From Octopus vulgaris (taxonomy: Eukaryota), in NCBI GenBank assembly GCA_951406725.2, contig OX597823.1:23684001-23748000 (forward strand): a DNA stretch of 64,000 nucleotides. The letters run 5' to 3'. The translations under genes and the position numbers were made by a program. The notes under the pieces were generated by a model. That model saw only the letters and a list, made by a program, of their open reading frames with translations. It had not been told where the DNA came from and searched no databases. Shown one piece after another: positions 2,968 to 64,000 of this stretch (within the stretch, counting starts at the first letter, position 1; each line of letters starts with the position of its first letter).

Positions 2968-3198
2968 CTGACACCCCTTTGAAGCTTAAGAAAGTTAGCG
3001 TACCACAGAAGGATACTTTACAACAGCTTAAACAGAAGACCTTAACTGAGTGTAATGAAGCTTGTCAACAATATGAAGGATGTAATTCTTATGAGTACAA
3101 TGAGAAGGATAAACTGTGTGGTCTAAGCAATGTGACACAATTGACTAGTGAACTTAAACCCAACATTGGAAATTGGGATGTTTATCTCACTAGCCCAG
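2968..3198 (+). CDS. Exon A1: PAN/Apple domain type A (231 nt)
   Basis: Acceptor tttccccag|CT, donor CCAG|gtcagt. [14 protein letters not shown]...[28 protein letters not shown] has the C-x3-C-x5-C-x11-C PAN core. Confidence 0.92.
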
Positions 3199-4624: not shown

Positions 4625-4655
<31 letters not shown>

Positions 4656-5001
4656 CCTAAAATATATATTTAGGTTGTAAAATTGTGAATTAGCCATCCA
4701 TATTATATATGTGTATATATATGTGAGTATATCACTGGTGGTGGTGTAACACACCATACTAATCATATTTGTTGGGCATGTGGAAGAGAGTGTAATTCGG
4801 CAGGGGGACTTAAACGACATGCAAAGGTACATGAAGCCCAGTTACAACTACAGCCGGCTATTACCGGTAAAGGTTTGAATTGCCAATTCTGTACAAGACA
4901 TTGTAGATCTTTAGCTGGGCTAAAAAGTCACATTCGATCACAGCACCAATAACAGTTAAGCTTCGTGCAATGGCCATACTCAATAACGAGGGGCAGCCAT
5001 C

Positions 5002-5036
<35 letters not shown>

Positions 5037-5064
5037 TATATATATACACACACATATATATACA

Positions 5065-5140
<76 letters not shown>

Positions 5141-6731: not shown

Positions 6732-6804
<73 letters not shown>

Positions 6805-9800
6805 TGCATGTATATATCAGAGTGTTTATACATAGTGTGTGAAAATTCCTTCAAACTTTTCTTCAATGACATGCATTCTAAATTCAACACACAATCACAC
6901 ACACTACCACACACACACACATGCATAAGCTATTTTAAAACATGATATTTTTGAGTCATTACTATTTTAAAATTAACTTTGTCATTCATGTTTTAGAAAA
7001 TAATAATAGCAGACACTCAGTTTACTCAAGAAATTAAGGGGAGAAAACTGTAACTGTGGCTTTAAAAATTGAGCAAAGTGATTTAGAGATTGCTCAGTTT
7101 TTAAAAGTCGCCAGATCTTTTGTTTACAAAATTTGCAATGAGGTAGAAGCCTCAGATGGATTAGTATCACTAGTATTGAAGCAGGAAAAACATTCCCAAT
7201 CCTCTAATGCCATCAGAATATCTAATTTCATTCAACAAGTTAAACAAATCATTGAAAAAAATCCATGTGACCAATTGCAATACATCTCCATGTGCTAGGA
7301 GGGACAATCTGAAACGTTGTCCTTTAAGACATCCACTACGAGTCTTATATTATAAGGAGAAGTCAATTCATATCAGAAAAAACAAAAGAAACTTGTCTGA
7401 TCAATTCTAACAAAGTTAAAACCCAAAAGAACATAACATGATTTGATTTTTCTCAAACGAGTAAAACTTTGACTGGGACCAGAAAATTAACTGAAAAAAT
7501 GACAGATGGTTATTTTCAGAAATCTGAAGTTTCAACAGTCATGCACACAAATTTCCTGCAACTGTCATGGCTTTTGGCAATGTCAGAAATGAAGGATATG
7601 TGATACCTCCTCACTTCTTTCCACAAGGCTTTAGAATTAACTCTGCTGGTTACATTAAGGTTCTGGAAACAGTTGTCAAGCACTAGATAGACAGAGTACA
7701 CAATGAAAGACTGTACATGTTTCAGTAGGTTCTTTGCACCATCACATAATGCTCAAGAAATCCAGAATTGGATGACTGACAATTTTTGTAACTATGTAAT
7801 TCTTAAAATTTGGCCTCGAAACTCACCAGACCTCAATCCATTGGCCTACTATGTGTGGAGTATTGTTGAAAGAGGGGGCAATCAACATCCCTTTAAAACC
7901 AAGGATTCTTTGAAAGCCACTTATCAGAGTAATGTCTGATATTAACCAGCACCATGTGGACCGTTCAGGTTTTGCCAGAAAGCAGTTATTGATGCTGAAG
8001 GTGACTACATTGAATAAAATTATAAGGAAGATGAACTAGTTTATATGTACAAATTTTTCATCAGTAAAGTTGTTTTCTAGTATTCTGTGTATATGCACCC
8101 TATATACACAGATATGTGTGTGAGTGTATACATACATAAATACATATATATGCCTATTTCTGTCTGTGTACATGTTTCTTCAGTGTGTTTCAGTCAATAT
8201 CTTTATTCAAAATTTGTTATTATCTCCTCATCCTTACACTTCTCCTAACATATAATTACCATTGATACCATTTTCTCTGTATCATTTCCAGTGTTTTCCA
8301 AAGTGGACTGTGGACCACCAAAAGACATTACTGGTGCTTCAAAGTCCTATAAAACCACTACCTATAAATCTAAAGTAATCTACACTTGTCCAGAAGGAGA
8401 AAAATTAAAATCGATATGTGAAGACGACAATAAATGGACCCCAGTAGCATCTTCTTGTAAAGGTAATAAAAATAGGCTCTCACTTGTTGCTTGTGTCTAT
8501 GTAATTTTGTTTTGATTTTTGTGTTATGTATTTTTGTCAGAGGAAGAATTGCTGTGTCCATGACAATTTCCATTGTGATAGTGGTTGTTGGAAAAGAGAA
8601 AAGTTATCCTCAGAGCAAAGAGCACTTCAAATGCTTGCAACATTGCAACAGATTGGGCTTTGTGAGTGTTACCCAAGGGCCAGATAATGCAATTAAATTG
8701 GGAGATGATTCATGTGTGCCAAACAAGCACAAGAACTGTGGAATCTTGTACCTTCCTGAAATTTCTATGGAGTTGCTATCAACCAAATTTCATGCACACG
8801 GCTCAGATGTGAAGCAAATTCTTAAGCATGCAGACAGAACTCAACCCAATATCCCATTGTTGTTAAGCAAAACTATTATGTCCACAGTTATACCTCACTT
8901 CATCTTGACATTTTTTCTCTAATTTCTCACTTGACCTTTCCCATCCATACTTTGTGTCATCATCTAGAATTCTGTATACAGTAATCCCTTGCCATATTGC
9001 AGTACACCTATTGTGATTCACCTATTGCAGTTCACCTATCATGGTTTATAATTTAAGCTTATGTCAATTCCTCTGTGGTGTTGTTTTGTATTTATAATAA
9101 AACAAATATATACAAATTATAAAGTAATAAAAAAGAATATGCAATATAGTACTGTTTTTACTTCACAGATTTTCACCTATCTCAGGGGGTTTAGGAATGT
9201 AACATCCACGATAGTTGAGGGACTACTGTAATACAATGCACTGAGTTATTCTTTAATATAATTCAGAATTCAGGATGCTGTACATTTCAGATGAGATAGA
9301 AAAGGACCAAGAAATCTGATGCTTTGCTGCACTCAAGAAAATGTATCAACCATAACAGATGTTTTAAAAATGCAAATGAAAAATAAACTGAAGTTAGAAG
9401 TCCCTGTCTTCTGACCTTTGAACCTCATCCACTGCACAACCTCTATCACTACAGCTACCAGACAGAGGAAATTTGGCTTCTTTACTTAGTTAAAGGAGGG
9501 TGTGGGGCAATCATCATGATGGACGGATTTGTCACACACACAACAGTCACAGTTTGACATATCTTTACAAATCAGCAATGCATGGACAATGAACATGTGC
9601 ATGTAAAATGGTTTTGATGCACTGTGCACATCTTGGACAACACTGATGGCACTTCCATGACTGTAGATTTTACCTTGAACCAATTGACTTCCAAGAACTC
9701 CAGAAAGTTGTCCATCTTAGTCCCTGATCATAATCCTTGACCAAAAAGATCTTTGAAACAAACTTGGCAATTCATTTTCTTCAATGCACTGAGCATCCTT

Positions 9801-15800: not shown

Positions 15801-18800
15801 GGTTAGAACACCTGCCTTATTCTTTTCCAAGGGCACAAGCACTGCATACAGCTCTGGAGTGAACTTGGCAGCTAGCTCCCTCAGGATACCCAGACAATGC
15901 TTGATCACCATTTCCATGGCCCCTTTCATATGAATCCTCTTCCAGTTAGTGATCACTGACTTCATCCACCCTAGCACAGTGGCAGAATCGGTCCAGATCT
16001 TGACTATTTGCAGGCCCCATCTCAATACTATGTTGATGCCCTTCAATACAGCATCCAGTTCAGCCACTCTGATGTGGTTGCAGTCGTCCTTCTTCCTAAG
16101 CCATGCTGCGTCTTCCACCTCGACACCTCCTGTTTCCAGCATGACTCCCAATGCTATGCTGCTTGCGTTGCACCATATGATCCCTTTCTTTATATCAGGC
16201 ACATATTAGCCACTCCTCACTGGATCCTCTGCTCACACTCTCTCCAAGACCTCTCATCATTACCATCATCTTCTCTCCTACTTTATCGCCTTAGTTCACT
16301 CTTTCTGTTCACCTTTTGAGACAGCTACATGCTGTTTGGAGCCATCCTGCAACCGGGTAATGGCCCACCAACTTCCCACATATTGACAACAGCTCTTGCC
16401 TATTCATATTCTGATTCAAGTCTGGGATCTCATTTCCTCTGTGAAGCACATACTCTTTCAAGCCTGTGCCTCAGTACCTCACTTGTCACAAAGCGATACT
16501 CAAGATGTAGTGGCAACAGTGATGATGGATACAAGTGGGACAAAGAAACAGGCATGAAACAACAACAGCAAGAACCTGGTGAGGTGAATGACCAAGGGAC
16601 CAGCACCGTACCTCCTTCTATACCCTCTGGTAGTTTTGCTGTCAGCCCAAACCTCCTAAGATGGCCGATTATTTCCTCTGCTAATACCACATTCTCACCC
16701 ACTAAAATATCGTCAATACATGAACTAGTAGCCTGTTCCACTTGGCCTCTTTGCCCAAAACCGTCTCGAGGACCTTTGCCATGATCTTTAGCACCGAACT
16801 CAATCCAAAACCTAGTCTTGTTTGGCAATATGTTTTTCCCTGCGTTTTGGTTTTCCTTGGGATGCTAGCAGTGACAGACACCTGTTGTGGAAATAGAGAG
16901 GTCATGACAATACAGGTGAAAAACCAATCAATCTGCCCAGCAGTATCCATTCCGAGTCAAGGGAAGAACAATTTTATTTACATGCCTTTGTAGCAAGTCT
17001 TAATAAACCTTTACCAGCAGTAATATGATGTCATGGTCATGTTGGCCGAATAGGTATAATTATTAGTTTCCCATTGGTTAAAATTACTGCCTATATTTGA
17101 ATTCTAACTTTCGTCAAAGAGAAATCTTCCTTCTCAATTGCTGATGTGATGTCATCTCTCGTTGCTTCCAGTTTTCCTTTCACCACAGATACTCCAAGGG
17201 AAAGCCTAACAAGCAGAACAGACACCTTCATAGGAATTTCAATTTCTATTCCCACACTATAATAAGAAACTTAGTAACTGGCATTACTAAAAACTCTCAG
17301 AGTTATGCTCAGATAGAGATAATTTTGACAGCAATTTCATGCTTCAAAACATTGCTTACTTTTTATTCGGCCTGATAGTTTTTTAGCATAAGATATCCTT
17401 CTTAAACTTCATGTAAATTCTGGTATATCATGAGACATACTTGGAACTTCACCTTCATGATTCAGTTGCAGATAATGCATTTGTATGTCCCTCTTCTGAC
17501 ACTGTTTTTGTTTATGATTTAATGGCCATAACACTTGACACATTATTTGACCTTATAAAAATACATCATTAGAAGTGGGGTTATATAAGTGTGTTATGTG
17601 CACCTTAAGTTTTGAAACACATTTACAAATAAATCTGAAGATGTGTTACAATTCACATGAATCCTTAGTTGTCATTATGGATGTTATATGATATTCAGTG
17701 TGTGAGTTTAAGAATGTGTTTCTTGTCTTTTTTCTTTTATATTTCTCCAGCAAAAGATGAGATTCTTAAATTTAAAAGCGCTATGATACCAGGAGAGGAT
17801 ACTTTTGAACGAGTGACTAATGTGAGCTTAAAGGAGTGTGCTCAAGCTTGTCATCAAAATCCAAAATGTAATTCTTATGAGTACCAAGAAAAATCTAAGT
17901 TCTGTGATCAAAGTAATGTGACTCACTTGTCTCATGACCTTCAACCCAGCAAATGGGGTTGGGATGTATACATCGTTAACCCAGGTCAGTGGTGTTTGCA
18001 TTTCATTTTTTTATGTGTGCTTGCATGTTAGTGTGTTTGTATGTATTGTCATATATGTAATGTGTGTGTGTGTATACCGAATGTGTACCGTTGGCGACTT
18101 TTTTACTCCGTCTTCCCTTCTTTGGATCTTTCCTTTTCCTATGTTTCTGATGAAGAGTTCCGCTCGAAACATTAAACCCTCCTTCTTTCCTTCTTTCCTG
18201 AGCGTCCAATAACACTATACTTGTTCCACATCCTTGCATTGTTGTTTTCTCTTTGTATTTTCATGGATTAACTATATATATATATATATCATCATCATCA
18301 TCATCATCATTTAGCGTCCGTTCTCCATGCTAGCATGGGTTGGACGGTTCAACTGGGGTCTGTGAAGCTGGAAGGCTTCATCAGGCCCAGTCAGATCTGG
18401 CAGTGTTTCTACGGCTGGATGCCCTTCCTAACGCCAACCACTCCGTGAGTGTAGTGGGTGCTTTTTACGTGCCACCCGCACAGGTGCCAGACAGAGCTGG
18501 CAAACGGCCACGAACGGATGGTGCTTTTACGTGTCACCGGCACGGGGGCCAGGCGAGGCTGGCAACGGACACGAACGGATGGTGCTTTTACATGCCACCG
18601 ACACGGGGGCCAGACAGGGCTGGCAAACGGCCACGAACGGATGGTGCTTTTACGTGTCACCGGCACGGGGGCCAGGTGAGGCTGGCAACGGACACGAACG
18701 GATGGTGCTTTTACATGTCACCGACATGGGGGCCAGACAGGGCTGGCAAACGGCCAGGCTGGCATACATATATTCATCCTGATAAATATAATATATATAT

Positions 18801-21800
18801 GTATATATATCTATCATCATCATCATTATTGTCATTTAACGTCTGCTTTCCATGCTGGCATGGGTTGGACGGTTTGACTGAGGACTGGTGAACCAGAAGG
18901 CTGCACTGGGCTCAGTCTGATCTGGCAAAGTTTCTACAGCTTGATGCCCTTCCTAACTCCATCCACTATGAGAGTGTAGTGGGTGCTTTTTACGTGCCAC
19001 CGGCATGAGGGCCAGTCAGGCGGTTCTGGCAATGACCATGCTCAAAAGGTGCTTTTTGTACATGCTACCTGCACAGGAACCAGTCCGGCAGTACTGGCAA
19101 TGACCACCTTCAAATATTGTTTTTCACATGCCACCAGCACATGTGCTGGTAAAGCGACGCTGGCAATGATCATTCTTGAATAGTGCTTTTTACATGCCAC
19201 TAGCTTGGGAGCCAATCTGTGGCCCTGGCAACGATCATGCTTGGATGTGCTTTTAATGTTCCACTAGCATGAGTGCCAATCAGGTGGTACTGTTATCGGC
19301 CATGTCAGCGATTTTGATTTGGTTTCACTTGCCTTAATGGGTCTTCTCAAGCAAAGTTTATTGTCCAATGAATGAGGAGTACTCATAAGTGGGCTGGTTA
19401 CACCCCATGCTTGGATGTGCTTTTAACATTCCACTGGCATGAGTGCCAATTAGGCGGTACTGTCATTAGTCATGTCAGTGATTTTGATTTTGATGTATGT
19501 ATATATGTATGTATATCTACATATCTCTATCTGTCTGTCTATATTGCTTATCTGGGTCCAGCATTTAAAAGATTGACATGAAGTAAAGCTTCTCTTGGAC
19601 TTGTGACTGCTACATCACATCACATTTCAAAGACTATGCACTTGCAATCTAAGAACAAGAGATTTCTATTGAATGCCTAACCAACAAAAGGGAGAGTGAA
19701 GCACTTGGACTTCCAAGTTGCAGCCAGAAATGTAGATTATGTCCTATTTCTGTGGAAGACACCACATGTGTGATTAGCAGCTGTCCAAAAATCTCATCAA
19801 GGTATGACCTCGCTATACGAAATGATGTCGCCAAAACAATATATGTAAAATGATATTCAGAAAAAAAAATGTCCTGGAATAAATATAGAGAATCCCCATG
19901 TTATTGAATATGTACACATATATCATCACAAGGAATACTGGTGGAGTATTTCCATCAAAACATCTGTCGAGTGTAAACATAACACGCCAGATATTGTTGT
20001 TTGAGACAGACAAGGAAAGTATGTACCATCACAGAGGTTGGCTGTCCTGCTGATGTGAATAATGCTTTGACAATCAGAGAAAGAAGATAATTATGGGCAA
20101 CTGTTTCAAAACCTCAAACTTCTATATCCAGATTACAAATTTAGGTTTATACCAATAATAATAGGATAACTTTTGTAAGTAAAAGACTGTCAGTCTGGAA
20201 AGCTTGGATTTTCAGAAAAAGAAATCAACCAACTTTCACATTACAAATACAATCTGTTAGTTGAACAGTAAAACTTTGCAAGACTTTGTATGTATATACG
20301 TACATACATATGTTTGTATGTACATACTTATCTGCCTATCTAGCTACCTACCAACATTACCACCTACCTATGTACATGCATCCATACATACCTACGTACA
20401 CACACTTACACAAACACACACACACACACACATGCACATATTGTTATGTATGTTTTTATATTCTAGAGCAGATTTCTCAATTTGATTCATTCATGATATT
20501 TTATTTATTGTAATGTTATTTTCTCCTTATTCTGACCTACCTCTAAACATACAAGCACAATTAGTGTCAATTTTTCTTTTCAATATCAGGTTTTTCACAA
20601 ATTGACTGTGGACCTCCTAAAGAAGTTGATGGTTCAGTGAAGTCCTTTAATTCCACCTTGTATAAATCTGAAGTCACCTATACTTGCCCAAAAGGAGAAA
20701 AACTGAAGTCAATGTGTGAAAAGAACAATGAGTGGACTCCAGTAGTATCTTCTTGTAAAGGTAACATAAAATGCTTGTTGTCTCTGTGTATGTTGCTTCT
20801 GTCCCTTATTTCATCTGTCTACATAAATTTGTTTTACACCAGTCTTTGATGTGAAGTAAATTCTTAACTACACAGCAAAAAACTCCATGCAAAACCACAT
20901 TGTTGCTTATTAAACTTGTTATCTCCAGAGCTATGCCTCATCTCATCTTGGTCGTTTTCCTCTTAATTTCTAACTTGAACTTTTGCACCCATATTTTTGT
21001 ATCACCCAAAACCCTGCACAATACCCTCTTCCCAACTTTACCAAAACTTGGTTATCCTCTGGAAAAATAAAAAAATAAAAAGATGATGATGATGATTCTG
21101 CAATACTCAATGTAGCAGGACTTCTATCTAGGACAAATTGAAGAAACCCACCACAAAAACATCACCCTGAATTCCATGGATAAGTGTGCTCTCCAGTTAT
21201 TGTTCAATTTACTTCTTTATGCCCTGTGATTTTCATTCATGCAGGCCCTTTTTGCTACTTTTACCTTACTTTCAATACTACCCTCGAGGACAGTGTCTTC
21301 CTTTCCATTCTCACTTTCTTTGCTAGGGAAACTTCAAAAATACAAATGTGGGATTAATCAAACAAGAAAGTCACTGTCATCTGATCTATCAATCTTATCC
21401 ATCTTGACTAAAAATTCTACATGACAGTACCCCTGCATGGCTGAAGTTCAATAACTGAAGCAAGTAAAAGATAGAAGATAAGAAACTATGTTGACCATCC
21501 ACAATGGGGTATTCACAATAGCTGGTCCATGATAAAATTTGAACTTAGTATTGGAGTCTAACAGATTTAAATGCTGTTATTATCTGGTTCAGGTCATAGA
21601 AAAGATGGTGGACAACACTTGGTTCAATGTTAATGTATTTATTACAATAATAAACACTTACATTGACACACAAATGCTCAGGTTGGGCATGAACTATGTT
21701 CATGTCACAGGTCTAGAAAGGAGGGTGGCCAAGAGTTCCATGACATAGCTTTATTTTTTCTGTCATAACTAGTTTATTGAAAGATAAAAACACTATTTTT

Positions 21801-24960: not shown

Positions 24961-27668
24961 ACACATTTATGGATGTTTTTGTATAGAGGAAACAGTGTGG
25001 ACTGATGTTGTTTGTTTCTTCTGTGTCAAAATTTCAAGTGTTCAAATGCACTTGCAAAAGAATCCTGCATATGGAATATCTGTTTAATCTCAGCAAGTTC
25101 ATGTTGACATTCAGATAGTGGTAGTAGTTGGTGACATAGTTAGAAATAGGCACTAATTACATAAATATACATACCAGGTTGAGTTGAATGTATTTTTGGA
25201 TTTTTACTTTACGTTTTTAGCAACTTGAATCTACGTGTTATATTATTCTATATTTTTGAGACAATGAATTATGTACCTTGTTTACAATGGACAGATGGGT
25301 GTTCTCATCTTGTTTGTTATTACGTTTTGGCTGATGTACTCTCCAACCTTCATCAGGTGTTCTGGTGGAATTTCGAATCCAATCCTTTATTTGACTAATA
25401 GGATACATTGTTCCGATTCCTAAGGTATGTTGCTGATGTTATTTTTCTGTCGATATTATTTTTCGAGTCCCTGCCTGTGATTGAACTTAGAATCTGAGGA
25501 ATTTCAATGAATGTGGGGCACAAAATTGGTTCAGAGGATTCAAAGAAGGTGACACCAGTCTTGGAAATGAACCAGAGTCAGTGAGACCTTATGTGTGGAA
25601 GATGAAGACTTACTTGATGTGGGTTAACAGCCTAGCACAATCACTTGTACATTGCTGGCAGAAACTAGTCCTTCACTAACCATCATCAATCAACACCTCC
25701 ATAAGCTCACCTCTGTGAATAGATGCTGTTAAGAAGATCCTCATGAACTGAACAATTACCAGGCTCAACAACGTGTGAACATTTACAAACAACTGATGGC
25801 AAATCCACAAGATCACCATTTTTTTGCATCAAATTGTAACTAGGAATAAAAATAGTTCTATTTCCATAATCCTAAGAGAAATCAGTGGCTTCATTTTGGC
25901 CAGGCTTTAGAACCTGTTGTCAAACAAGTTTGAACAGAAGGTTGTGTTGTGTGTTTGGTTGAATTTTGAGGGAATGTTACATTTTGAGCTTGTCCCAGAT
26001 GGTCGTGCTGTGAATGCTAACCTTTATGATCAGTAACTACAGTGAGTACATGATGCTTTGAAAGCCTACTACAGTTGACAATGCACACACCCACAGCACA
26101 ACAGTACTCCAGAACATACTGCCATGGTGAACAAGTGCAAACTTGAGAAACTTGTGGTGTTGAAAGTGTTGCCCCACACTGACTACAGTCCAGACCTTGC
26201 ACTGTCAGATTACCATCTTTTCTGAGTCATAGCTTATTTCTTGTATGGACAGAGAATCAATAGTATGGATGAAGGAAAACAAGTGTAAGAAATTTTTTGC
26301 CTCTACGTGAGCCAGGTGGTATAAGTATGGAATTAAGCTTCTGACACAATGATGGCAACAGACAATAGAATATGATGAGATATATTTTGATAAATAAACA
26401 CTTTTTGTGTGTAATTTATTTGAACTAATATTTAAAGCTTAAAATACATAAAAAGTTTTGACCCAGCCTGGTATACACATGTACATATGTACACATGCAC
26501 GCACACAGACAGACAGACACATGCAGACACACAATGGGCCTCTTTCAATTTTCATCTATAAATCCACTCATAAGGCTTTTGTAGGCCCAAAGCTATTGTA
26601 GAAGGCACTTCTCAAACTGTCATGCAGAACAAAACCTAGAACCATGGGGTTAAGAAGTAAACTTCTTACCCCACAGCCACACCTATACTTGTTTGTAACA
26701 CATTTCTCATTTGCAAAATTATCCTCCAGATGCTTTACAATATTTAATACATACTAGTATGTGTTAAGGTGGATGGGTGAGTATAAAATGTATTTTTTGT
26801 TTTCTTTTTTTCAGCTGATAAGCCTCTTCAAATTAAAAAAGTTAGCATACCAGAGAAGGATAATATTGGAAGTCTTATGAATGTGAACTTAAAGACATGT
26901 AATGAAGCTTGCCTTCAGTATCCAGAATGTAATTCTTATGGGTACAATGAGAAAGAAAAACTGTGTTACCTGAGCAATGTGACTCAGTTGACTGCTGAAC
27001 TTAAACCAAACAATGGAGGTTGGGATGTATACATTATTAAACCAGGTCAGTAGTGTGTTTCCATTTAATTTGTATATCTGTCAATGTGTACTTGCACATA
27101 TGTATATGTGTGTGTGTATATATGTTTGTGTGTGTGTGTGTGCATACAGCAGTAGAGGGAACCTGTGGGAGATGTAGACCCAGACCCAGGAAGATCTGGG
27201 ATGAGGTGGTGAAGCATGACCATTGAATGTTGGACCTCATGGAGGCGATGACAAGTGACCGAGACCTTTGGAGATATGCTGTGCTTGAGAAGACCTGGCA
27301 AGCCAAATGAGGCCTTAACTGTGGTCTATGCCAGTGCAGCATAACTGGACCATTTAAGAGTACCCTTCAATCATTGGGCAATAAACTGTGCTTGTGGAGA
27401 CCTGTTGAGGCAAGTGAAGTCATTGTCATGGCCAATGCCCATACTGCTTGACTGGTGACCGTGCCAGTGGCATATAAAAAGCACCATTCGGTGACATGTA
27501 AAAAGCACACACTACACGCTCGGAATGGTTGGCATTATGAAGGGCATCCAGCTGTAGAAATCTTGCCAGATCAGATTGGATTCTGGTATAACCTTCTGGC
27601 TTGCCAGTCCTCAGTCAAACCATCCATACCATGCCAAAATGGAAAGCAGATCTTAAACGATGATGATG

Positions 27669-27714
<46 letters not shown>

Positions 27715-29506: not shown

Positions 29507-29700
29507 TCGTCTGGCACCTGTGCAGGTGGCACGTAAAAAGCACCCACTACACTCACGGAGTGGTTGGCGTTAGGAAGGGCATCCAGCTGTAGAAACACTG
29601 CCAGATCTGACTGGGCCTGGTGCAGCCTTCGGGCTTCTCAGACCCCAGTTGAACCGTCCAACCCATGCTAGCATGGAAAACGAACGTTAAACAATGATGA

Positions 29701-29766
<66 letters not shown>

Positions 29767-41600: not shown

Positions 41601-44600
41601 CTGCAGACTTCCATCTCTTCCCCAAGATGAAAATGCAGCTTAAAAGTTGTTGTTTTAACACCGTAGTTGAGATACACAGTGAATCGTAAGAGTGACAGGA
41701 ATGCTGGGACCAGTGTATTGCTGCAAAGGTGACTATTTTGAAGGAGATGATGTTAAAACTTAGGTTAATAAGATATTTATTATTAAATTTATCTCCTCCT
41801 GAAACTTTTTGATACCACCTTGTAACTTTTCTATCTCTTAATTTTAACCTTCCTCCTAACATACATGCAGAACTCATATTAGTTTGTTATCAATTCCAGT
41901 TTTCTCAAAAATTGACTGTGGATCTCCAAAAGATGTTGTTGGTGCATTGAAATTGTATAATACCACCACCTATGAATCTGAAGTGATCTATACTTGCTCA
42001 AATGGAGAACAACTGAAGTCAGAATGTGAAAAGGACAGCAAATGGACACCTGTTCCATCTGTATGTGAAGGTAATGTAAATAGTTTCTCTTTTCTCACTC
42101 TTTATGTAGTTTAGTTTAATTTTGCACAATTTCCACTGTGTTTGTGACAGGTTGGAGGGAAAGAAGAGTCTAGTCTCAGACCACAAGTCATCCTCAAATG
42201 ATTGCAACCGCACAGACATCATTAATTGCACCCAAGGGCCAGAAGTTGGGTAATGGATTAAAGTCTGCCAACCAAACAGTGGAAATATGGAAGCTTGTTC
42301 CCTAGAGTAGGCTTCCATATAGTTTTCATCTATCAAATTTTCATGGGAAGCATATTTACAAGCACAGGATTTCTTCCCTCTTCCACCATTTCCCTACTCT
42401 CATCAATCCTCCCTCATGTATCCAACTACCTACCTGCACGCCATATGCTCCCATTAAATGCCTTTGTATACCAGCCACATCTAGCTCCCACTGTCTTTCC
42501 AAAATCTTGTGACTCACCCACATTTTCATCATTTTTTTCTTGTTTTTCTCTCCTTCATCAGAGGAAGACAATCTCTCTTCCATTGCAAGACATCTTTTTC
42601 TCCTTCAATACTATTCAACTCCAATTTAGGAGTCTAATCCTACAAGTTACTTGGTGGCCTCACTCTGCTGGTGCCATGTAAAAATCACCTAGTACACTGT
42701 AAAGTAGTTGATATCAGGAAGATCATCCAGCCATGGACACCATGCTAAAACAGACAGCAGAACTTCGTGTAGTCTTCTGATTTGTCTGTTTCTATTAGAC
42801 TGTCCTACACATACCAGCATGGAAACTGGATACTAAATGATGATGGTAATGACTATGATTCCACTCAGTACCACAGGCTTGTGAAGGAAACTCCTTTATC
42901 TCACAGTTATACCTAAGTATTTGTATGCAGATCTTTACTTAATTTCTAACTAGACCTTTTCCACTTGTACCATGTGTCATCATCCAAAACCCTGTATGAT
43001 ATAATGCCTTGAGTCCTACAAAAATTCAGCAGTCCTTTGAAATAGCACTAATGATTATTCTAATCCACCACCCTCAGTTATAATAAATGCAACTAATAAT
43101 CACATTTGCTATAAGCCCAAGGACTGAAATTTATGTGGGGAGGACTAGTCAATTACACCGACATCCATACTGAACTAGAACTTATTTTATCAATTCCAAA
43201 AAGGTTGAAAGACAAATTGAAGCTCTTAAACTGAGAATATAAAGCTAGAAGCAATGTTGTTAAGCATTTTGTCTGGAGTGGTAACAGTTAAACTAGCTTG
43301 CCATCTTATATACAACTAACAATTATAACTCTTTCTTATTTATTAACAAGAACAGGAATTTTTGATGGCAGGAGTTTAGTCTTTACCACTGGTTTCAGTA
43401 CTTGAATAGTACTGAATTACACCAATCCTTGAATGGATAAAAGGCAAAGTTGACATTTGCTGGATTTCAACCCAGAGCATAAATGTCCTGAATACATAGT
43501 GAAAAGGATTTCTTCCAATGTTCTAATGATTCTTATTATAAGCATAATAATAATGATTTCTATTAATTGCCACCAGTGTGATAGTTAAGGTTGATGATAC
43601 ATACACAGACATATTGTTATGGTGTGTTATATAGAATGAAATGAGTAAAAACGAAATATATGAGAGTACATGGCATTCTTTTATAAATAATGATGTTGAG
43701 GATGATGATGGTACAATCAAGAAACCCCATGACCTAGAATCACTGAACACTGCGTGGTTATGACCTCACTAATTGTCATTCTCTGACTTACAGGCTTCTG
43801 CATATTTGTCCCATTAACACTTGCAAACTTTGCCACTTTCACCACCTTTTCAATGGTCTCATTCTAGGAAAGTATCTCCCTCATCACCCTCCCTTTCTTT
43901 TACAGGTAAAATGTGACAGGACAATGAGTTATCAGTGAAACCTAATAGCCTCAGTCCTTGAATGTTTTGACTTTATCCACCATAAACATATTTTCTTATG
44001 GCTTCAAGAATATAATATCTGTGGTTCTAGTTCCATGATAGAATACCGATAATATACTTTGTAAAATGGTCAGTGAGGAAGCAGAGAGATCATAGTTTTG
44101 AGACGAACCTTTATTCTTGTCTTGTCAACAATATGACAATAACCTGTATAGTGCTGGTGCCATGAAGACATACACCTTGTACATTCTATAAAGCAGTTGG
44201 TGTTAGGCAGAGCATCCAACCAAGAAGCCATGTTGGACAAGTAGGTGGTGATTAGTTGATAGCTCAGCCCCACTCTTCACAGAATGAAAGAAATCCAAAT
44301 GACAGCGAGATCTATCTGTGACCCATGTCCCACTATGTATCTTTTAGTCCATGTTTATCTCCCCATTCTCTCCCACCTCATACATATGCAGCATTGGTAA
44401 ACATCACAGTTTTCAATTACAGATTTTGCACAAATAAATTGTGGAACTCCAGAAGATATTGATAATGCATCAAAGTCATATAAAACCACCACCTATAAAT
44501 CTGAAGTGACCTATACTTGCCCAAAGGGAGAAAGACTAAAGTCAACATGTGAAAAGGGCAACAAATGGACTCCAGTAGCTACTGCTTGTAAAGGTAATGT

Positions 44601-53300: not shown

Positions 53301-54533
53301 TCAGAAGTAATGTGAATTCTAGTACATCATGAGACATGCTTCAGACTTTGCCTCGGAGCTTTGATTGTAAAATATCGATTTGTACATCCCTCTCCCTATG
53401 GTGTGTTTTCCTTTAATACTGAATGGTCATAACAACACTTGATACATTGGTGGATTACCTGTTCAGGAGGGTGTTGACCCTACAAAATTACACCATTGGA
53501 AGAGAGATGTTCAAATGCATTGTCTTGAGCCTAATTATTGAGACAAGGTTTCAAATATGTCTGAGAATATTCTACTAGTTGTATGCATTCTGATTAGTGT
53601 GTCATTTTGTGAATCAATTATTTCTTGATAATAAATTGTCCATTTACAAAATTATACCCCGCTTGCTTTAAAATATTTATTATGAGTGTGTGTTTGTGAG
53701 GGTATACAAGTATATACTGTATTTCTTGATTTCTATTTCTTTTCCCAGCTGACACCCCTTTGAAGCTTAAGAAAGTTAGCATACCACAGAAGGATACTTT
53801 ACAACAGCTTAAACAGAAGACCTTAACTGAGTGTAATGAAGCTTGTCAACAATATGAAGGATGTAATTCTTATGAGTACAATGACCAGGATAATCTGTGT
53901 GGTCTGAGCGATGTGACACAATTGACTAGTGAACTTAAACCCGACAATAGAAATTGGGATGTTTATCTCATGAGCCCAGGTCAGTAGAGTATTTCTTTTT
54001 TATTTATATGTTCTAAATCCTGTATGTATTTACATGTATGCATCTGTGGGAATATAGTATATACTGTGTACAGTATATACAGAATAGAGTATATACAGTG
54101 CTTGTTTGTGGTTCAGCATTTGCAGTCCCGGTTATTCGTGGGACCGATAATTGTTCGCAGTAATCACCACATATTTGTGGAATTGTAAATATTGTCTGTG
54201 ATGTTTTATTGCATTTTCCATGGTAATATATACTTTCTCACACTTGTTATGGCTAAATCATTAATAATATTTTATCGTATTTGCCAATTTTCTGGACACC
54301 CCTTCACAGCTGAAGATCCCTCTGATTAGAATTACTGCGCATCAAGTCACTTGATGTTTTTTTAGATACAAGTACGCTGTATCTTGTATGTCTTATTCTT
54401 GCTTTCAATGAAAGCTTGCTAATTCGTATAGCGACATCTATTTATGTTTCATGCATACACTCTCTCTGTCTCTCTCTCACTGTATTTGTCTCTCAATAAC
54501 AACAACCTATCAATGTAGTGAAAGTATATATAC

Positions 54534-54595: not shown

Positions 54596-54649
<54 letters not shown>

Positions 54650-59082: not shown

Positions 59083-59118
<36 letters not shown>

Positions 59119-59680: not shown

Positions 59681-59721
<41 letters not shown>

Positions 59722-62700
59722 GTCATTGCATAAATAATGCTCTCTTTTTTCATACTTCTTTTATATTTCAAAATTAAGAGAAAGTTCTTTTTCTATCTAA
59801 AATATACTCTCCTTCAGCTTGTAAATTTGCAAGGCCCGTCTTCCAAAATTCACTTTTCTGTGACAAAAGATACTCCTCCAGTACTGTTCTCACCTCATCC
59901 ACAGAATGTATAACTTTTCCATCCAAATGACTTTGAAGATTTTGGATTAACTGATCATCAGATTGGGTAATGTCTGGTGAATACGGTGGCTGGGGCATCA
60001 TTTCCCATTCAAGCTGCTCCAACCTTTGGAATGTCATCCTTATAGTATGTGGGTGAACATTTCCCTGATGGAAGAACACCTTTCGTCTTGAAATCCAAAA
60101 CCATTGTTTTCCATCTAGCGCTGACTTAAGCCGCTCAATCTGTTCATAGAAGTTCTCCTTTGTCATCATTTGCTTTGGGTTTAAAAGTTTAAAGTGGACT
60201 AAACCTTTCATATCACGCCAAACATAACAACATTTTATGTGGGTGAAGACCTTGTTTAGCTTAGGGTACTGGTGTTTCTCCTTTCCCTATCCCTGGTCTT
60301 CAGCACTTAACATTTTTATAGATAACCCTTTTCTTGTCTCCAGTCATATTCAGTCCAAAGAAGGTTCATTCGTGAGGCATGACAGCAAACAGCACACTTT
60401 TACTCTCTGAGCGCAATTACTCAGAAAGTTTGTGTAGCACCCATTGACCCAATTTGTTGAATTTTCTAATGGCCCGCAAGTATCACTGACTGGCTGAAGA
60501 ACCAAATCCAAATTTATTTGCTTGTTCCTCAACTGTTACAATGGGATTTTGTTCCATCATGGTTTGCAGGATGTCCCCATATGTAACTGTAATTATTGGG
60601 GCCCTGGGATATGTAACACACTCTCTAAATACCAATCTTGCAAAATTAGGCTTGTGAAAACCAGGAAGGAGAAAGCCAATTTGAAGACTACAGATCCAAT
60701 CCATCATTGGAACAGTAACAATCTGTAAAACTTTCCCGAAGTTTATCGTTTAAATATATATCAACATGTCTAAAAATGCAAGTATATGCATGAGAATACA
60801 TGCATAAAACAAAACATATGAATCTGCACATATACATACATACAAACAAAAATACTCGGTTGTTAATGTTGAAATTCCAATGAAGGAGTCTTAGATCCAA
60901 GTCAGAAACTGGTTCTTTCTCTGTTGGCAAGAAATCTTGAAATAAAACTTAACAATGACATACATAAATATATATATATGCCTATTTCTGTCTGTGTACA
61001 TGCTTCTTCAGTGTGTTTCAGTCAATATCTTTATTCTAAATTTGTCATTATCTCCCCATCCTTACACTTCTCCTAACATATAATTACCATTGATACCGTT
61101 TTCTCTGTATCATTTCCAGTGTTTTCCAAAGTGGATTGTGGACCACCAAAAGACATTGCTAGTGCTTCAAAGTCCTATAAAAGCACTACCTATAAATCTC
61201 AAGTAATCTACACTTGTCCAGAAGGAGAAACATTAAAATCGAGATGTGAAGACGACAATAAATGGACTCCAGTACCATCTACCTGTAAAGGTAATGTAAA
61301 GAGGCTCTCTCTTGTTGTTTCCAACTACATTATTTTTTTTTGTGTGTGTGTTAAGTGTTTTTGTCAGAGGAAGAAATGCTGTATCCATGCCAATTTCCAT
61401 TGTGAATTTCACTGTTGGGAAAGATAGAAGTTAATGTCAGCAGAAACCTCTTCAAATGCTTGCAAGAGTGTCGGCTTTGTGAGTGTTACTCAAAGGGAGG
61501 ATGATTCGTGTTGTGCCAAACAAGCACAGGAAGAATTGAATCTTGTCCCTACCTGAAATTTCCATGGAGTTTTCATCAACTAAATTTCATGTGCAAGGCT
61601 TAGATGTGAAGCAAATTCTTAAGCACACAGATAGAACCCTGCGCAATATTCCATTGTTTTTAAGCAAACTATTATGACCACAGCTATAACTCAGCTCGTG
61701 TAATTTTTTTCTATAATTTCTCACATGACTTTTCTCATCCATATTTTGTGTCATCATCTATTACTCTGTACAATACAATGCACTGAGTTCTTCTTTACTA
61801 GAATTCAGCAATCCTCTGAAACAGACTTCCGATGCTCAAGTGATATTCCATCCAGTCCATAATCCTAAATTATAACAACACAAATAATAATAATGATTCT
61901 TTCTAATTTGGGAAAAGAAAGCCAATAATTTTCTATATGTTGTAGATTAAGTTCCATTTTGTTGTTTTCGTATAGATTATTGGTTTGAGGATGTATCCAT
62001 CGGTTACAATATAATTAAGTTGACTAAATATGTTTGGGTGTGTGATATGTATATGTCTTCCAATTAAACGAAGTCCTTTTTGCATCCTGCTGTTGGTAGA
62101 ATGAAAAGAAAAGTCAAATTCATTTTTGTGGAGAAATGTAAAAAAGATCAGATACAAAGACAGTTTCAACGAATTCTCTTTTTATTTCAAGGATATATGC
62201 TATTACATGTAAATACATCAGGAGTAATCTCCCTTCGTCAGCGAAAGTAACTGGAAGAGTATCGTATTGTAGAATGTTATTTCTAGGTTTTCGTCTAAAG
62301 GTTTGTCCATAAAGAAGTGAAAGGAATCATATTGCTTATCAAGTCCATTGAAACTACACTTGAGAAAGAGTTTAGCTTTATGACTTATGGTCATTATTGA
62401 GAAGGATAACGTCTTATGTCATTAGTAGAAGAATGTCAAAATTCAACAAGGAGTGTATGTGAGTTTCAGTGACATAGCTTCCCAAAGGCAAACTATCCAC
62501 TTATTAAAATCAGAAAAAATATCATGGTTTTTATAACTTCCCATGGAAATTTCTAGAAGCGTTCTGAAATATGATTTAAAATAATTTAGGCTAAAATGGA
62601 GAATGATTTTGGATGAAATCTATAGCGGCTGTCGTTGGCTGTTCAAGAGCTTGTTATTAAATGGAAAAACAGTATGAATCACCATAAGACACTTTTGTGT

Positions 62701-64000
62701 GTAAATATATTGATTATTCTGTGTTCACCTTTTGTGGTGGAAGCCTGTAGTATGATACAAAAACATGTCTGTTTACATAGAAAGAAAGTTTTGATTTTTG
62801 CTTTTGCACTGAAAGAAGTAACATATAACATTTGTATTATATTATGTTTGCATGTGTAGAATGAGAACAGTCATTTTGAGAATGTGTTTGTGATAAAGTA
62901 TCTTCATTTACGAACCGCATATCTTGTGTCGAGGTGAATACACATGTGAGTCGCACGTGGAATATTGTGTGCAGAGCAACAGAGAAGACATTTGTCTTTG
63001 ACCAAAACCTGGCAGGAACTTAGATCTTCTACTGTGTAGCTCAGAACGAGGCTGGTGTCTCAGAACAAGGCTAGTGTATCAAAGCAAGGGTAGTTGTCTC
63101 ATCGATATATTCGTCTGCTGTGTAGGTCAACTTACATATTACCACGTAATATGTAGATTTGCTACAAATATTTTTAGCCAATGAGAGAACTCGTAGATTT
63201 TGTTAAGTTGTAGATTTTGTAAGCCACCAAATAAAAAGCCTTTACTACAAATCGATGCCATTTAGTGAGTATCATCAACTCCAGTTCTTCACTAATATTT
63301 TATGCTTTTGACCTCTGCAAGAATGAAAGGCAAAATTGATACTGGCTGGATTTAAACTGAATACATGAAATGCTTGAATACAAATCTTAAAGCATTTCTT
63401 TCAATTCTGACACCAACTTGTGTAGTTTTCCACTCAAAATGAAAGTGAATTTGTATTTGGTTTGCAGGGCAAAATGTTACATAATCAGTAAAGTAATGTC
63501 TTGCAGTGACTAGCCATATATAGTTACCTTCTTTTATATTCTGGATTCAAAGACCATCCGGATATATTCACCTTTCATTATTCAAAGGTTGATAAAATTA
63601 GGCCTAACCAAGTACTGAGTTTCATTTATTCATATTCATTCTGAATGCAAAATGTGTGGCTTTGCATTTGTATTAGAAACCATTTTCATAAATACTGTTT
63701 TTATCCACAATAATTATAATTATTCCTGTTGCTAAAGGTGATGCATTTGCAGAATCCGAGAACATCAGATAAAATGTGTGGTGGTATTTGTTTTGGCACT
63801 TCAGCTGCTAATTCCAATTCCTACTGATGTTAATTTTGCTATTGCTGGGCCAATAAATTAAAATAGCAGTCAAGCATAGAGGCCATATTTTGTTGATTAA
63901 CTCATACCTCAAAATTTTGTCCTTTCTAAGTTAGAGATTATTATTATTGTTATTCTTTTTGTCTTTTACATTCATCTAAACCTTACTTGAATTCCAGTTG
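2968..64000 (+). CDS. Internal part of a large multi-exon gene encoding tandem PAN/Apple and Sushi/CCP domains (likely extracellular); start and stop lie outside the window
   Basis: 15 complete AG..GT-bounded exons, all phase 1-1 and multiples of 3 in length. Joined in order they give 3141 nt with no stop (junction codons GTG,GTC,CCA,GGT,GAT,TCT,GTC,GTC,CCC,GTT,GAT,GAT,TCT,GTG). Cys patterns are conserved while introns are full of decayed TEs. Confidence 0.9.
3307..4174 (+). mobile_element. Rearranged mariner-family element with ~200-bp inverted ends
   Basis: Mariner HTH/linker residues ([25 protein letters not shown]). 3307-3512 is the reverse complement of ~3968-4174. The right arm encodes the transposase N-terminus on the minus strand ([13 protein letters not shown]). 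TA follows at 4175. Confidence 0.8.
4244..4494. repeat. Foldback hairpin of two inverted, decayed hammerhead-bearing units; duplicated at ~59170-59375
   Basis: ttttttaggaagtta pairs with taacttcctaaaaaa, and ttcgcacctataaagt with actttataggtgcgaa. At 4398-4457: GAGT-CTGAGGA-stem II-GAAG-TCAATGG-TC-ACTC. Confidence 0.7.
4730..5005 (+). mobile_element. Probable RTE-type LINE 3' end encoding two C2H2 zinc fingers
   Basis: 4770-4952 reads [21 protein letters not shown]...[23 protein letters not shown], followed by a short 3' UTR and an (AT)n tract. No upstream acceptor or start is evident. Confidence 0.6.
5004..5800. repeat. (AT)n/(AC)n and degenerate (GT)n/(GTAT)n low-complexity tracts
   Basis: Read directly from the sequence. 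Source of the spurious YI/CV/HT ORFs. Confidence 0.9.
6960..8095 (+). mobile_element. Decayed Tc1/mariner-superfamily transposon
   Basis: Frameshifted pieces: [16 protein letters not shown] (HTH), [29 protein letters not shown]. Boundaries approximate. Confidence 0.75.
8292..8462 (+). CDS. Exon B1: Sushi/CCP domain (171 nt)
   Basis: Acceptor catttccag|TG, donor AAAG|gtaata. VDCGPPKDI...[29 protein letters not shown] has 4 Cys and the conserved Trp. Confidence 0.92.
8979..9228. mobile_element. Tigger/pogo-like MITE
   Basis: TIRs CAGTAATCCCT / AGGGACTACTG, with TA on both sides. Absent from the paralogous intron near 61770. Confidence 0.8.
10255..10505 (+). mobile_element. RTE-clade LINE RT-thumb fragment
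   Basis: [30 protein letters not shown]. Confidence 0.7.
10506..11280 (+). mobile_element. Degenerate coding-like fragment, probably an unclassified DNA transposon
   Basis: [21 protein letters not shown] and downstream frameshifted Cys-containing pieces, with no splice structure. Family not identified. Confidence 0.35.
11342..11794. mobile_element. TA-flanked MITE (pogo/Tc1-mariner type)
   Basis: Imperfect TIRs CTGTATTTTCCGGTCTATAA / TTATACACTGAAAAATATGG, with TA on both sides. Confidence 0.6.
12152..12931 (+). mobile_element. Internally deleted mariner relic, same family as 40588-41822
   Basis: TIR CAAGGTGGTATCAAAAAGTT and a PYSPDLAP-coding segment (ccacctattcaccagatttagcacct). Confidence 0.75.
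12935..13390 (+). mobile_element. Two old tandem SINE relics just upstream of exon C1; repeated before C2, C3, C4 and C5
   Basis: Degenerate match to the 2100-2320 SINE (cagaatcattag..caaaatg..ttcaaatc..tttgctctt). Paralogues at ~22310-22760, 35260-35670, 48040-48530 and 63470-63950. Confidence 0.55.
13443..13679 (+). CDS. Exon C1: PAN/Apple domain type C (237 nt)
   Basis: Acceptor aatttcag|TC, donor GAAC|gtaatt. [28 protein letters not shown]...DYYQR. Confidence 0.9.
14900..17187 (-). mobile_element. Deleted LTR retrotransposon (Gypsy-like pol order RT, RNase H, integrase)
   Basis: RT pieces RLGFGLSS and CIDDILV. RNase [23 protein letters not shown]. Integrase H..H..C..C. Direct repeats ending 15063 and 17187 look like LTR edges. 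Left boundary approximate. Confidence 0.75.
17751..17984 (+). CDS. Exon A2: PAN/Apple domain type A (234 nt)
   Basis: Acceptor tttctccag|CA, donor CCAG|gtcagt. [28 protein letters not shown]...WDVYIVNP. Confidence 0.92.
18143..18177 (+). ncRNA. Minimal Penelope-type hammerhead ribozyme motif with one stem III mismatch
   Basis: GTTT-CTGATGA-AGAG TTCCG CTC-GAAAC-ATT-AAAC. Stem I is GTTT/AAAC. Confidence 0.6.
18290..19490 (-). mobile_element. Two adjacent SINE copies with (GAT)n tails and internal ~61-62-bp tandem repeats
   Basis: Shared core ggctggatgcccttcctaacgccaaccactcc and repeated ggcaaacggccacgaacggatggtgcttttacg. Same family at ~27150-27668, 29505-29703, 39370-39550, 42640-42845, 44925-45140 and 46665-46850. 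Confidence 0.75.
19600..20290 (+). mobile_element. Degenerate RLE-type LINE 3' fragment
   Basis: [27 protein letters not shown] and HNTPDI pieces. Homologous to 37330-38075. Confidence 0.65.
20590..20760 (+). CDS. Exon B2: Sushi/CCP domain (171 nt)
   Basis: Acceptor caatatcag|GT, donor AAAG|gtaaca. [11 protein letters not shown]...[30 protein letters not shown]. Confidence 0.9.
22803..23042 (+). CDS. Exon C2: PAN/Apple domain type C (240 nt)
   Basis: Acceptor aactctag|AT, donor AAAT|gtaaat. [28 protein letters not shown]. Confidence 0.9.
24885..24965. repeat. (CA)n microsatellite
   Basis: Read directly from the sequence. Confidence 0.95.
25174..26471 (+). mobile_element. Mariner relic with a nested Penelope-like fragment (~25270-25490)
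   Basis: TIRs CCAGGTTGAGT / ACCCAGCCTGG with TA flanks, and a [13 protein letters not shown] motif near 26184. A decayed minus-strand hammerhead lies at 25321-25360. Confidence 0.7.
26815..27045 (+). CDS. Exon A3: PAN/Apple domain type A (231 nt); absent from the ORF track
   Basis: Acceptor tttttttcag|CT, donor CCAG|gtcagt. Hand translation [14 protein letters not shown]...[32 protein letters not shown]...WDVYIIKP. Confidence 0.92.
28243..28445 (+). mobile_element. Helitron-like non-autonomous 5' end
   Basis: TCTCTATATATATAAAA start, a (GTCT)n microsatellite, then aaccaatttcattcaaatttt. This layout is typical of such elements. Confidence 0.45.
28450..29230 (+). mobile_element. Penelope-like element relic (GIY-YIG endonuclease) with an inverted segment
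   Basis: [42 protein letters not shown]. 28450-28549 is the reverse complement of 28891-28991. Confidence 0.8.
29406..30885. repeat. Very long (TA)n/(TATG)n microsatellite complex interrupted by SINE pieces
   Basis: Read directly from the sequence. Confidence 0.95.
31007..31115 (-). ncRNA. Antisense copy of the same type I hammerhead ribozyme
   Basis: Reverse complement of 31569-31677, with the core intact. Confidence 0.8.
31569..31677 (+). ncRNA. Type I hammerhead ribozyme with an intact core; predicted cleavage after GUA at 31671
   Basis: TCTTTA-CTGATGA-AGTGT...ACACC-GAAA-CGATGCATCG-TA-TAAAGA. Stem I is TCTTTA/TAAAGA, stem II is GTGT/ACAC with an ATGGTA/TACCAT extension, and stem III is the palindrome ACGATGCATCGT. 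Confidence 0.8.
31934..32550 (-). mobile_element. Helitron-like non-autonomous element 3' end
   Basis: Minus strand ends CACGGGCAACACCAGGTAACTCTGCTAG-T, a GC-rich hairpin relic followed by CTAG. Far boundary uncertain. Confidence 0.45.
32900..33835 (+). mobile_element. Tigger/pogo transposase pseudogene fragment
   Basis: [43 protein letters not shown] and [14 protein letters not shown]. Confidence 0.85.
33925..34151 (-). mobile_element. tRNA-derived SINE
   Basis: Minus-strand B-box GAGTTCAAATTCC and central gttgactttgcctttcatcctttc. Confidence 0.8.
34580..34631 (-). ncRNA. Penelope-type minimal hammerhead ribozyme motif
   Basis: Minus strand GTCT-CTGATGA-AGTGATATT..AATATCCTA-GAAA-CAGCTG-TA-AGAC. 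Stem III is the palindrome ACAGCTGT; the base of stem II is imperfect. Confidence 0.65.
34987..35157 (+). CDS. Exon B3: Sushi/CCP domain (171 nt)
   Basis: Acceptor cacttccag|TC, donor AAAG|gtaatg. [12 protein letters not shown]...[29 protein letters not shown]. Confidence 0.9.
35718..35957 (+). CDS. Exon C3: PAN/Apple domain type C (240 nt), very Lys-rich
   Basis: Acceptor aatttcag|TC, donor AAAC|gtaatt. [28 protein letters not shown]. Confidence 0.9.
37330..38075 (+). mobile_element. Degenerate RLE-type LINE 3' fragment
   Basis: [33 protein letters not shown] and KHNKPDIVV. Confidence 0.7.
38292..38525 (+). CDS. Exon A4: PAN/Apple domain type A (234 nt)
   Basis: Acceptor ttcttctag|CC, donor CCTG|gtcagt. 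[28 protein letters not shown]. Confidence 0.92.
40588..41822 (+). mobile_element. Near full-length mariner relic (~1.24 kb)
   Basis: TIRs TGAGGTGATATCAAAAAGTT / AACTTTTTGATACCACCTTG followed by TA. ITSDES and PYSPDLTP pieces, many stops. Confidence 0.85.
41900..42070 (+). CDS. Exon B4: Sushi/CCP domain (171 nt)
   Basis: Acceptor caattccag|TT, donor GAAG|gtaatg. [11 protein letters not shown]...[29 protein letters not shown]. Confidence 0.9.
44423..44593 (+). CDS. Exon B5: Sushi/CCP domain (171 nt)
   Basis: Acceptor caattacag|AT, donor AAAG|gtaatg. [11 protein letters not shown]...[30 protein letters not shown]. Confidence 0.9.
48579..48815 (+). CDS. Exon C4: PAN/Apple domain type C (237 nt)
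   Basis: Acceptor gactctag|AT, donor AAAT|gtaatt. [28 protein letters not shown]; closest to C2. Confidence 0.9.
49330..50190 (-). mobile_element. Degenerate mariner-like relic
   Basis: Minus-strand pieces resemble a mariner N-terminus and the catalytic region ([11 protein letters not shown]). Heavily decayed, boundaries approximate. Confidence 0.55.
50520..52925 (+). mobile_element. Degenerate Tx1/L1-type LINE (APE plus start of RT), interrupted by a solo LTR
   Basis: APE motif [18 protein letters not shown]-proximal [12 protein letters not shown] and ENF*PTTLLN. Confidence 0.7.
51102..51995. mobile_element. Solo LTR (894 bp)
   Basis: TG...CA ends with a 9-bp inverted repeat TGTAGTGGA/TCCACTACA, and a 4-bp TSD CATA at 51098-51101 and 51996-51999. 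Confidence 0.8.
53749..53979 (+). CDS. Exon A5: PAN/Apple domain type A (231 nt), near-copy of A1
   Basis: Acceptor ttttcccag|CT, donor CCAG|gtcagt. 11 nt differences from A1 by manual alignment. Confidence 0.92.
54097..59088 (+). mobile_element. Tigger/pogo transposon relic (transposase pseudogene ~57280-58790) with nested insertions
   Basis: [50 protein letters not shown] and [11 protein letters not shown]. Subterminal ttcgtggg repeats at both ends. Left boundary approximate. Confidence 0.75.
54663..56704. mobile_element. Possible hAT-like element nested in the Tigger relic
   Basis: CAGAGGTGGGCA / CACCCAGTTCTG degenerate ends, with subterminal ttaacttc / gaagttaa repeats. Confidence 0.4.
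59718..60800 (-). mobile_element. Mariner transposase relic
   Basis: ORF 59774-60211: [32 protein letters not shown]. End TTGGGTCATTGCATAAATAATGC abuts (TA)n. Confidence 0.85.
61120..61290 (+). CDS. Exon B6: Sushi/CCP domain (171 nt), near-copy of B1
   Basis: Acceptor catttccag|TG, donor AAAG|gtaatg. 11 nt differences from B1 by manual alignment. Confidence 0.92.
61960..63130 (-). mobile_element. Possible highly decayed Penelope-like relic with a hammerhead remnant
   Basis: Minus strand CTGACGA-AGGGAG...GAAACTGTC at ~62158-62245, with weak endonuclease-like coding remnants upstream. Confidence 0.35.
63998..64000 (+). CDS. First bases of predicted exon C5 (paralogue of C1), cut by the window edge
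   Basis: 63470-63997 aligns with the intron before C1 (12930-13442) and ends ...cttgaattccag|TTG at the equivalent acceptor. Confidence 0.65.

Follow-up and report, generated by a model that had tools for sequence, protein, structure and literature searches.

A block-duplicated super-repeat of coding exons, most likely within an unrecognised giant secreted-protein gene of Octopus vulgaris

Exon anatomy and boundaries of the locus

The stretch of DNA analysed here, the window, covers 64,000 nt of Octopus vulgaris contig C10 (C10:23,684,001-23,748,000) and carries 15 whole exons and the acceptor of a further one, all on the plus strand, for which the names A, B and C are carried over from a first reading of the sequence. 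Self-comparison and translation confirmed their reported positions and order, with AG/GT borders and phase 1 throughout. The PAN/apple exon A1 (2968..3198, 231 nt, phase 1-1), the 20th A exon of the locus, is followed by the sushi/CCP exon B1 (8292..8462, 171 nt) and the PAN/apple exon C1 (13443..13679, 237 nt). The same succession recurs with A2 (17751..17984, 234 nt), B2 (20590..20760, 171 nt) and C2 (22803..23042, 240 nt), then with A3 (26815..27045, 231 nt), B3 (34987..35157, 171 nt) and C3 (35718..35957, 240 nt), and finally as a double-B unit with A4 (38292..38525, 234 nt), B4 (41900..42070, 171 nt), the second sushi exon B5 (44423..44593, 171 nt) and C4 (48579..48815, 237 nt). A5 (53749..53979, 231 nt) opens the next 13-exon copy and is followed by the sushi exon B6 (61120..61290) and by C5, a 237-nt PAN exon whose first bases lie at 63998..64000 and which runs beyond the window. 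Pfam assigned A and C exons to PAN_1 (E 1e-8 to 1e-10) and B exons to Sushi, above cut-off in all six exons tested. The three-exon A-B-C level is real in the window, and because the gene begins with a C exon, C-A-B is its natural unit.

The window makes up 4% of a larger exon array. A search of the 2.8-Gb genome yielded 106 A-like, 134 B-like and 107 C-like matches, all stop-free, on the plus strand and on this one contig between 23.27 and 24.98 Mb. Scanning 1,864,000 contiguous bases, which contain no N, with exon profiles gave 348 plus-strand matches, 346 of which are clean phase-1 AG/GT exons with CAG (240), TAG (101) or AAG (5) acceptors and a GT donor in every case; each has a length that is a multiple of three and at least four cysteines, and none contains a stop, including across junctions. 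The acceptor of one short A exon was set by hand, two decayed partial copies and one weak minus-strand match were left out of the exon set, and a second pass with full profiles over the region found no further convincing exons. The decayed copies (C10:24,195,916-24,196,038 and 24,207,896-24,207,973) are 98% and 92% identical to adjoining C and A exons and are failed small duplications. A shortened A exon of 201 nt with an AAG acceptor (C10:24,093,506-24,093,706) has a counterpart in O. bimaculoides that is 83% identical.

Downstream of a short neighbour, 343 repeat exons (same strand, phase 1, AG/GT, at least four cysteines each, stop-free) form the array of a predicted giant gene that includes the whole window (C10:23,362,495-25,003,050, plus strand). 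Its model comprises 349 exons over 1,640,556 bp, with 73,059 coding bases for 24,352 residues (2.75 MDa) and no internal stop. The most hydrophobic stretch is the N-terminus, and hydropathy analysis found no membrane segment in the 24,352-aa model. The 105 units of the model read CAB (73), CABB (27), CABBB (2) or CA (3), so that A follows C in every unit, and neither AA nor CC neighbours were found among the intact exons of the array. Introns between repeat exons have a median of 4 kb and reach 19 kb at most, compared with the ~68 kb that separate the giant from the short gene. The predicted protein is rich in lysine (14%) and holds 272 N-glycosylation sequons inside exons. Mean domain charge differs by class (C +7.4, B +2.7, A -0.6), and the giant protein would therefore bear a periodic charge pattern.

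Both ends of the array are marked by exons that recur in the short tandem paralogue (C10:23,269,850-23,294,200). The 465-aa protein GON-Abd-1 maps to the first three repeat exons of the region together with a signal exon and four GON exons with a terminal stop, and these constitute the short gene, a signal-PAN-PAN-sushi-GON orthologue of GON-Abd-1 with 81-84% identity in the repeat domains and 88-96% in GON; the public O. vulgaris model of this gene (385 aa) is without the first PAN exon and the signal exon. Approximately 68 kb further on, a paralogous first-exon pair with an ATG precedes the next C exon. The two first exons of the giant are homologous to those of the short gene, and their ATG and the top hydrophobicity window mark a putative signal peptide. 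After the last A exon of the array come a second set of four GON exons, a stop and AATAAA. Across the 1.86 Mb, signal-exon pairs and GON sets number just two each, one of either kind bounding the short gene and the other the array, and a similarity search, which a diverged terminal exon could escape, found no further signal-exon or GON-exon copy inside the array. The C-terminal GON of the family scores above the PF08685 cut-off (E 6e-33), the similarity of the region to COLFI being below cut-off. Genome-wide, the GON search adds a single separate locus (C1:49,326,822-49,334,254), which is probably a true ADAMTS9/20-type gene. The giant, in which 105 units follow the putative signal peptide in PAN-PAN-sushi order, is the sister of the adjoining 465-aa PAN-PAN-sushi-GON gene. 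At five other loci, on contigs C13 and C18, distant PAN exons of the C and A types occur, and no sushi match lies within 10 kb; one of these loci resembles a four-PAN protein of Argonauta hians, and two on C18 are near-identical copies ~74 kb apart. The C-A pair is an older module.

Levels of duplication in the array

The highest level proposed in the earlier note, a repetition of 13 exons together with their introns, is borne out by direct alignment. Near-copies extend from 2199-3284 to 52984-54063 (84% identity), from 8130-8976 to 60958-61770 (84%) and from 12928-13443 to 63472-63998 (82%), the offset between A1 and A5 is 50,781 bp as claimed, and exon identities reach 95% for A1/A5, 94% for B1/B6 and 88% for C1/C5. 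One full block (2968..53748, 50,781 bp) shares 18.6 kb of collinear sequence with the next copy at 84% identity, ~2.75 kb of which is coding. The expected continuation of the 13-exon order downstream was observed, in that 12 of the 13 exons find their closest match in the +13 partner (0.85-0.99) and not in an off-register exon; only C2 is nearer to an off-register exon (0.92) than to its partner (0.88). Per-class trees of the window's block resolve all four A classes and all five B classes, and three of four C classes form clades, the C2 class being split with C2 near the C4 class.

The same period dominates the array as a whole. Same-class pairs at lag 13 (n=227) exceed the class mean identity by 0.088, against a maximum of 0.009 in 1000 within-class shuffles, and the signal is echoed at lags 26 and 39. 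Among the 188 exons with a neighbour at least 85% identical, that neighbour lies at a multiple of 13 in 123 cases. Collinear runs comprise 31 exons at lag 13 for the window's block and 25 exons for a second block 0.7-0.9 Mb downstream; near the 3' end, blocks of 8, 10, 12, 18 and 20 exons are found. Between one block copy and the next, 13-29 kb align collinearly at 75-88% identity, far in excess of the ~2.75 kb that is coding, and therefore whole genomic blocks were copied. The copies of the window's block measure 50.8, 94.1, 72.4 and 57.3 kb, by which a fixed 50.8-kb period is rejected; the two middle copies, in which many exons are 97-99% identical, look younger. With copies of 51-94 kb, only 15 exact 13-exon tiles (195 of the 343 exons) and other block sizes in the array, the likening of the locus to satellite DNA overstates its regularity. 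What stands of the proposed higher-order repeat of coding exons is its 13-exon level, upheld by class trees and downstream DNA; the nested level of six or seven exons failed or gave mixed results in the A and B trees and the intron flanks of the window.

This intermediate level had been deduced from alternating A lengths, from two kinds of C exon and from a motif shared by B2 and B5. The A lengths do alternate (231/234/231/234/231), and 231-nt A exons occupy every second position through nine units. A2 and A4, supposed to be a pair, are tied as the least similar A exons of the window (0.65). A4 groups with A1 (89/89), an AU test of A2+A4 (p=0.088) leaves their pairing neither shown nor rejected, and in the 106-exon A tree A2 falls in an F clade (98) and A4, not A2's sister, in a K clade (96), to which type A1 and A3 also belong. 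The order of A types is accordingly K-F-K-K in the window's block and K-F-K-F in the downstream block, which lies within a region of true two-unit alternation (~A045-A089). For the C exons, the C2 and C4 classes do group (96/94), but the likeness is confined to the exon: intron flanks score 93 and 81 for C2/C4, whereas those of C2 reach 247 and 278 against its +13 partner, which points to exon-limited conversion rather than to a relic of half-block duplication. B2 and B5 are grouped in the tree, but with a support of just 85/83 and a shared motif that occurs in 17 of 133 B exons; their intron flanks are at background. The level of six or seven exons is hence real elsewhere in the array, and in the window it either has been overwritten in part or did not exist at any time.

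Constraint, conservation and competing readings

The integrity of the exons was compared with a neutral simulation along terminal branches, a crude model without indels. It predicts a stop in ~184 of the 343 exons (minimum 166 in 100 runs) and a lost cysteine in ~197 of 343; neither was observed in a single exon. Nei-Gojobori estimates of dN/dS, made with no transition correction, are 0.57-0.77 between block copies (seven comparisons), and 19 close B pairs give 1.08. Such high values therefore show little constraint apart from cysteines and frame, and we conclude that fold and frame are maintained as surfaces drift.

Domain order is conserved in two further species. In O. sinensis, XP_036361601 contains 36 domains in matching order, nearly all 98-100% identical. 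Seven O. bimaculoides models contain 105 domains with a median identity of 83-87% and one-to-one order in three stretches, and one of them terminates in GON; as these domains fall in 13 shared classes, the block is older than the species split. Searches for longer proteins returned none with a single exon as query and 14 with a profile, the strongest long matches being Octopus models, and in squid and cuttlefish only short forms were found by a search that covered 255-814 aa.

The window lies inside a 1.64-Mb in-frame PAN/PAN/sushi array, which we regard as probably a single gene whose predicted product is a secreted protein of ~24,350 residues, grown, likely by unequal crossing-over, through duplication of multi-exon blocks, most often of 13 exons. 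An ancestral short PAN-PAN-sushi-GON gene would have duplicated in tandem, and one of the copies would then have amplified its three middle exons. Phase 1-1 is common to every repeat exon, so the copying of any block leaves the frame intact. Local bursts may have fixed 13-exon blocks twice, giving rise to the window's block and the one 0.7-0.9 Mb downstream, and may also have fixed the blocks of 8-20 exons near the 3' end, exon-limited conversion being likely behind the likeness of C2 and C4.

The exon symmetry that permits block duplication also keeps any subset of exons in frame, and one may ask whether the single gene seldom if ever gives the full-length protein and instead yields a family of shorter secreted isoforms by exon skipping or intronic polyadenylation. 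Freely varying surface residues (dN/dS 0.6-1.1) would suit such a family, and Dumpy, with similar symmetric exons, is described as alternatively spliced (PMC2930355). We nevertheless hold this reading to be unlikely: the exons are interleaved C-A-B rather than grouped by class, unit order is preserved across three species, and all exons are intact, which requires regular use of each. Dscam-type mutually exclusive arrays have their alternative exons clustered by class; with interleaved exons and no same-class A or C clusters, a choice of that type was rejected. Four RNA-like runs, inspected for five exons (window 2500-22400), contained no exon-exon joint of the gene among the best-supported joints listed, with 96 further joints outside that list; their cover was mainly repeat-derived, and in one run short pieces matched exon and intron DNA alike. 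As no spliced RNA was seen, a single transcript is therefore what we infer. Family peptide motifs had 0 matches in the accessible parts of a skin mucus supplement (PMC10138644) and a salivary gland supplement (PMC7693380), and 0 in the proteomic supplement of PMC11525497, all of which depend on their authors' databases and are no evidence of absence. Window positions 18273-19281, 27490-27690 and 29509-29760 hold a dispersed repeat, tandem in units of 61 bp, that each of the four RNA-like runs covers at very high depth; it is probably an abundant SINE-like element. A further element at 31054-31906, with near-perfect inverted and direct repeats (31260-31364 versus 31802-31906, 99%) and two (AATTA)n tracts, is possibly a young non-autonomous transposon.

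Public annotation splits the O. vulgaris locus into at least four models of 4,470, 861, 857 and 4,283 aa that cover parts of it, and likewise divides the O. bimaculoides locus into several. This division, and the fact that no full-length cDNA was seen, would fit several tandem genes, arranged roughly as annotated and each with first and last exons of its own that went unrecognised, a reading we consider very improbable. The four O. vulgaris models, which peptides of the locus match verbatim, begin at internal methionines, and split models start in or between domains or end in intron read-through; internal copies of signal or GON exons were not found, and the array has no long gap, block duplications passing seamlessly through it. 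Least credible of all is an assembly artefact or a decaying, non-functional repeat, for which single exons up to 99% identical between certain copies and the two decayed partial copies could be cited, but which is largely refuted by the same order in O. sinensis and O. bimaculoides records and opposed by the lack of N in 1.86 Mb, by block copies whose aligned DNA diverges by 12-25% and whose lengths vary almost two-fold, and by 0 stops where ~184 are expected.

Returning to one gene for one giant protein, we lean slightly towards its strongest form, namely that in octopuses a 1.64-Mb gene of 349 exons gives rise to a single secreted polypeptide of ~24,350 residues, with 2.75 MDa before glycans and ~690 possible disulfides. 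Such a polypeptide would be a multivalent PAN-sushi filament on the micrometre scale, which would owe its origin to the runaway amplification of a salivary-type protein of 465 residues and whose length would still have been changing by 13-exon steps in recent evolution. If so, it is among the largest extracellular proteins known. Whole-unit skipping may add shorter isoforms, likely alongside the full length. As to function, we tentatively propose an elongated, disulfide-stabilised, multivalent secreted binding scaffold, which would be very roughly a micrometre long given usual domain sizes. In such a scaffold, glycans or proteins would be bound by the never-separated C-A PAN pair, sushi domains (0-3 per unit) would serve as spacers, and GON may help ER exit or assembly.

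Comparison with known proteins and giant modular genes

A targeted search, mostly of non-subscription literature, found no paper on the locus or on a giant PAN-PAN-sushi-GON architecture, and GON as a whole word was absent from the main text of the cephalopod and venom papers checked. The closest known relatives are the coleoid proteins GON-Abd-1 (R4G2C1, 465 aa), GON-SepT-1 and GON-SepT-2, which like the giant are built as signal-PAN-PAN-sushi (one or two)-GON. These short forms are reportedly cDNAs of the posterior salivary (venom) gland. They have one unit, in contrast to the 105 units and paralogous GON of the giant. Since the ancestral one-unit gene adjoins the giant, the path from a 465-aa protein to the giant is readable at one locus, which moreover keeps block duplications of different ages with introns still alignable.

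The PAN domains, with four conserved cysteines, have their best solved sequence matches in Toxoplasma MIC4 and Sarcocystis SML-2. Structure modelling of the short paralogue from O. bimaculoides gave confident predictions for its two PAN domains and its sushi domain, with a pLDDT below 50 in the first half of GON, and the modelled PAN region matches the fold of the apple domains of kallikrein, factor XI, MIC4 and SML-2. SML-2, whose apple domains the octopus PAN domains resemble, was solved with a galactose analogue. MIC4, SML-2, factor XI and prekallikrein contain just a few apple domains each. The C-terminal GON domain is shared with ADAMTS9/20 and GON-1, and it acts in ER-to-Golgi transport (PMC3338439). 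Membership of the ADAMTS family was rejected, Pfam finding no protease, disintegrin or thrombospondin domain in the O. bimaculoides C-terminal model and the short paralogue, and SVEP1 membership was rejected as well. The public names 'ADAMTS-like' and 'SVEP1-like' therefore mislead, and three Octopus annotations both fragment and misname the locus.

Among giant modular genes, titin has 363 coding exons, 3-4 MDa and ordered super-repeats of two domain types (PMC11040099). It is the super-repeats of titin's A-band region that the octopus gene resembles. Titin is intracellular and composed of Ig/Fn3 domains and a kinase, whereas the octopus protein has a predicted signal peptide and disulfide-type domains encoded by one exon each, in blocks that are young, locally varying and homologous in their introns. 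Drosophila Dumpy, according to PMC2930355, is a huge extracellular protein with an EGF-DPY-EGF unit, frame-symmetric exons, concerted evolution of the repeat region and alternative splicing. It shares the three-module unit and the symmetric exons with the octopus protein, but its 78 coding exons stand against 349 here, and Dumpy carries a ZP domain and is anchored in the membrane, where the octopus protein has PAN/sushi domains and GON and lacks a membrane segment. If transcribed whole, the octopus gene would come near titin in exon number (349 versus 363), yet for a predicted secreted product, and would raise the matter of 1.64-Mb transcription, ordered splicing of 348 introns and ER folding of ~340 disulfide domains. 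Collectively, the feature is a real block-duplication super-repeat in what is most likely an unrecognised giant secreted protein; coding super-repeats as such are already known from titin and Dumpy, and the novelty lies in the size and in this architecture.
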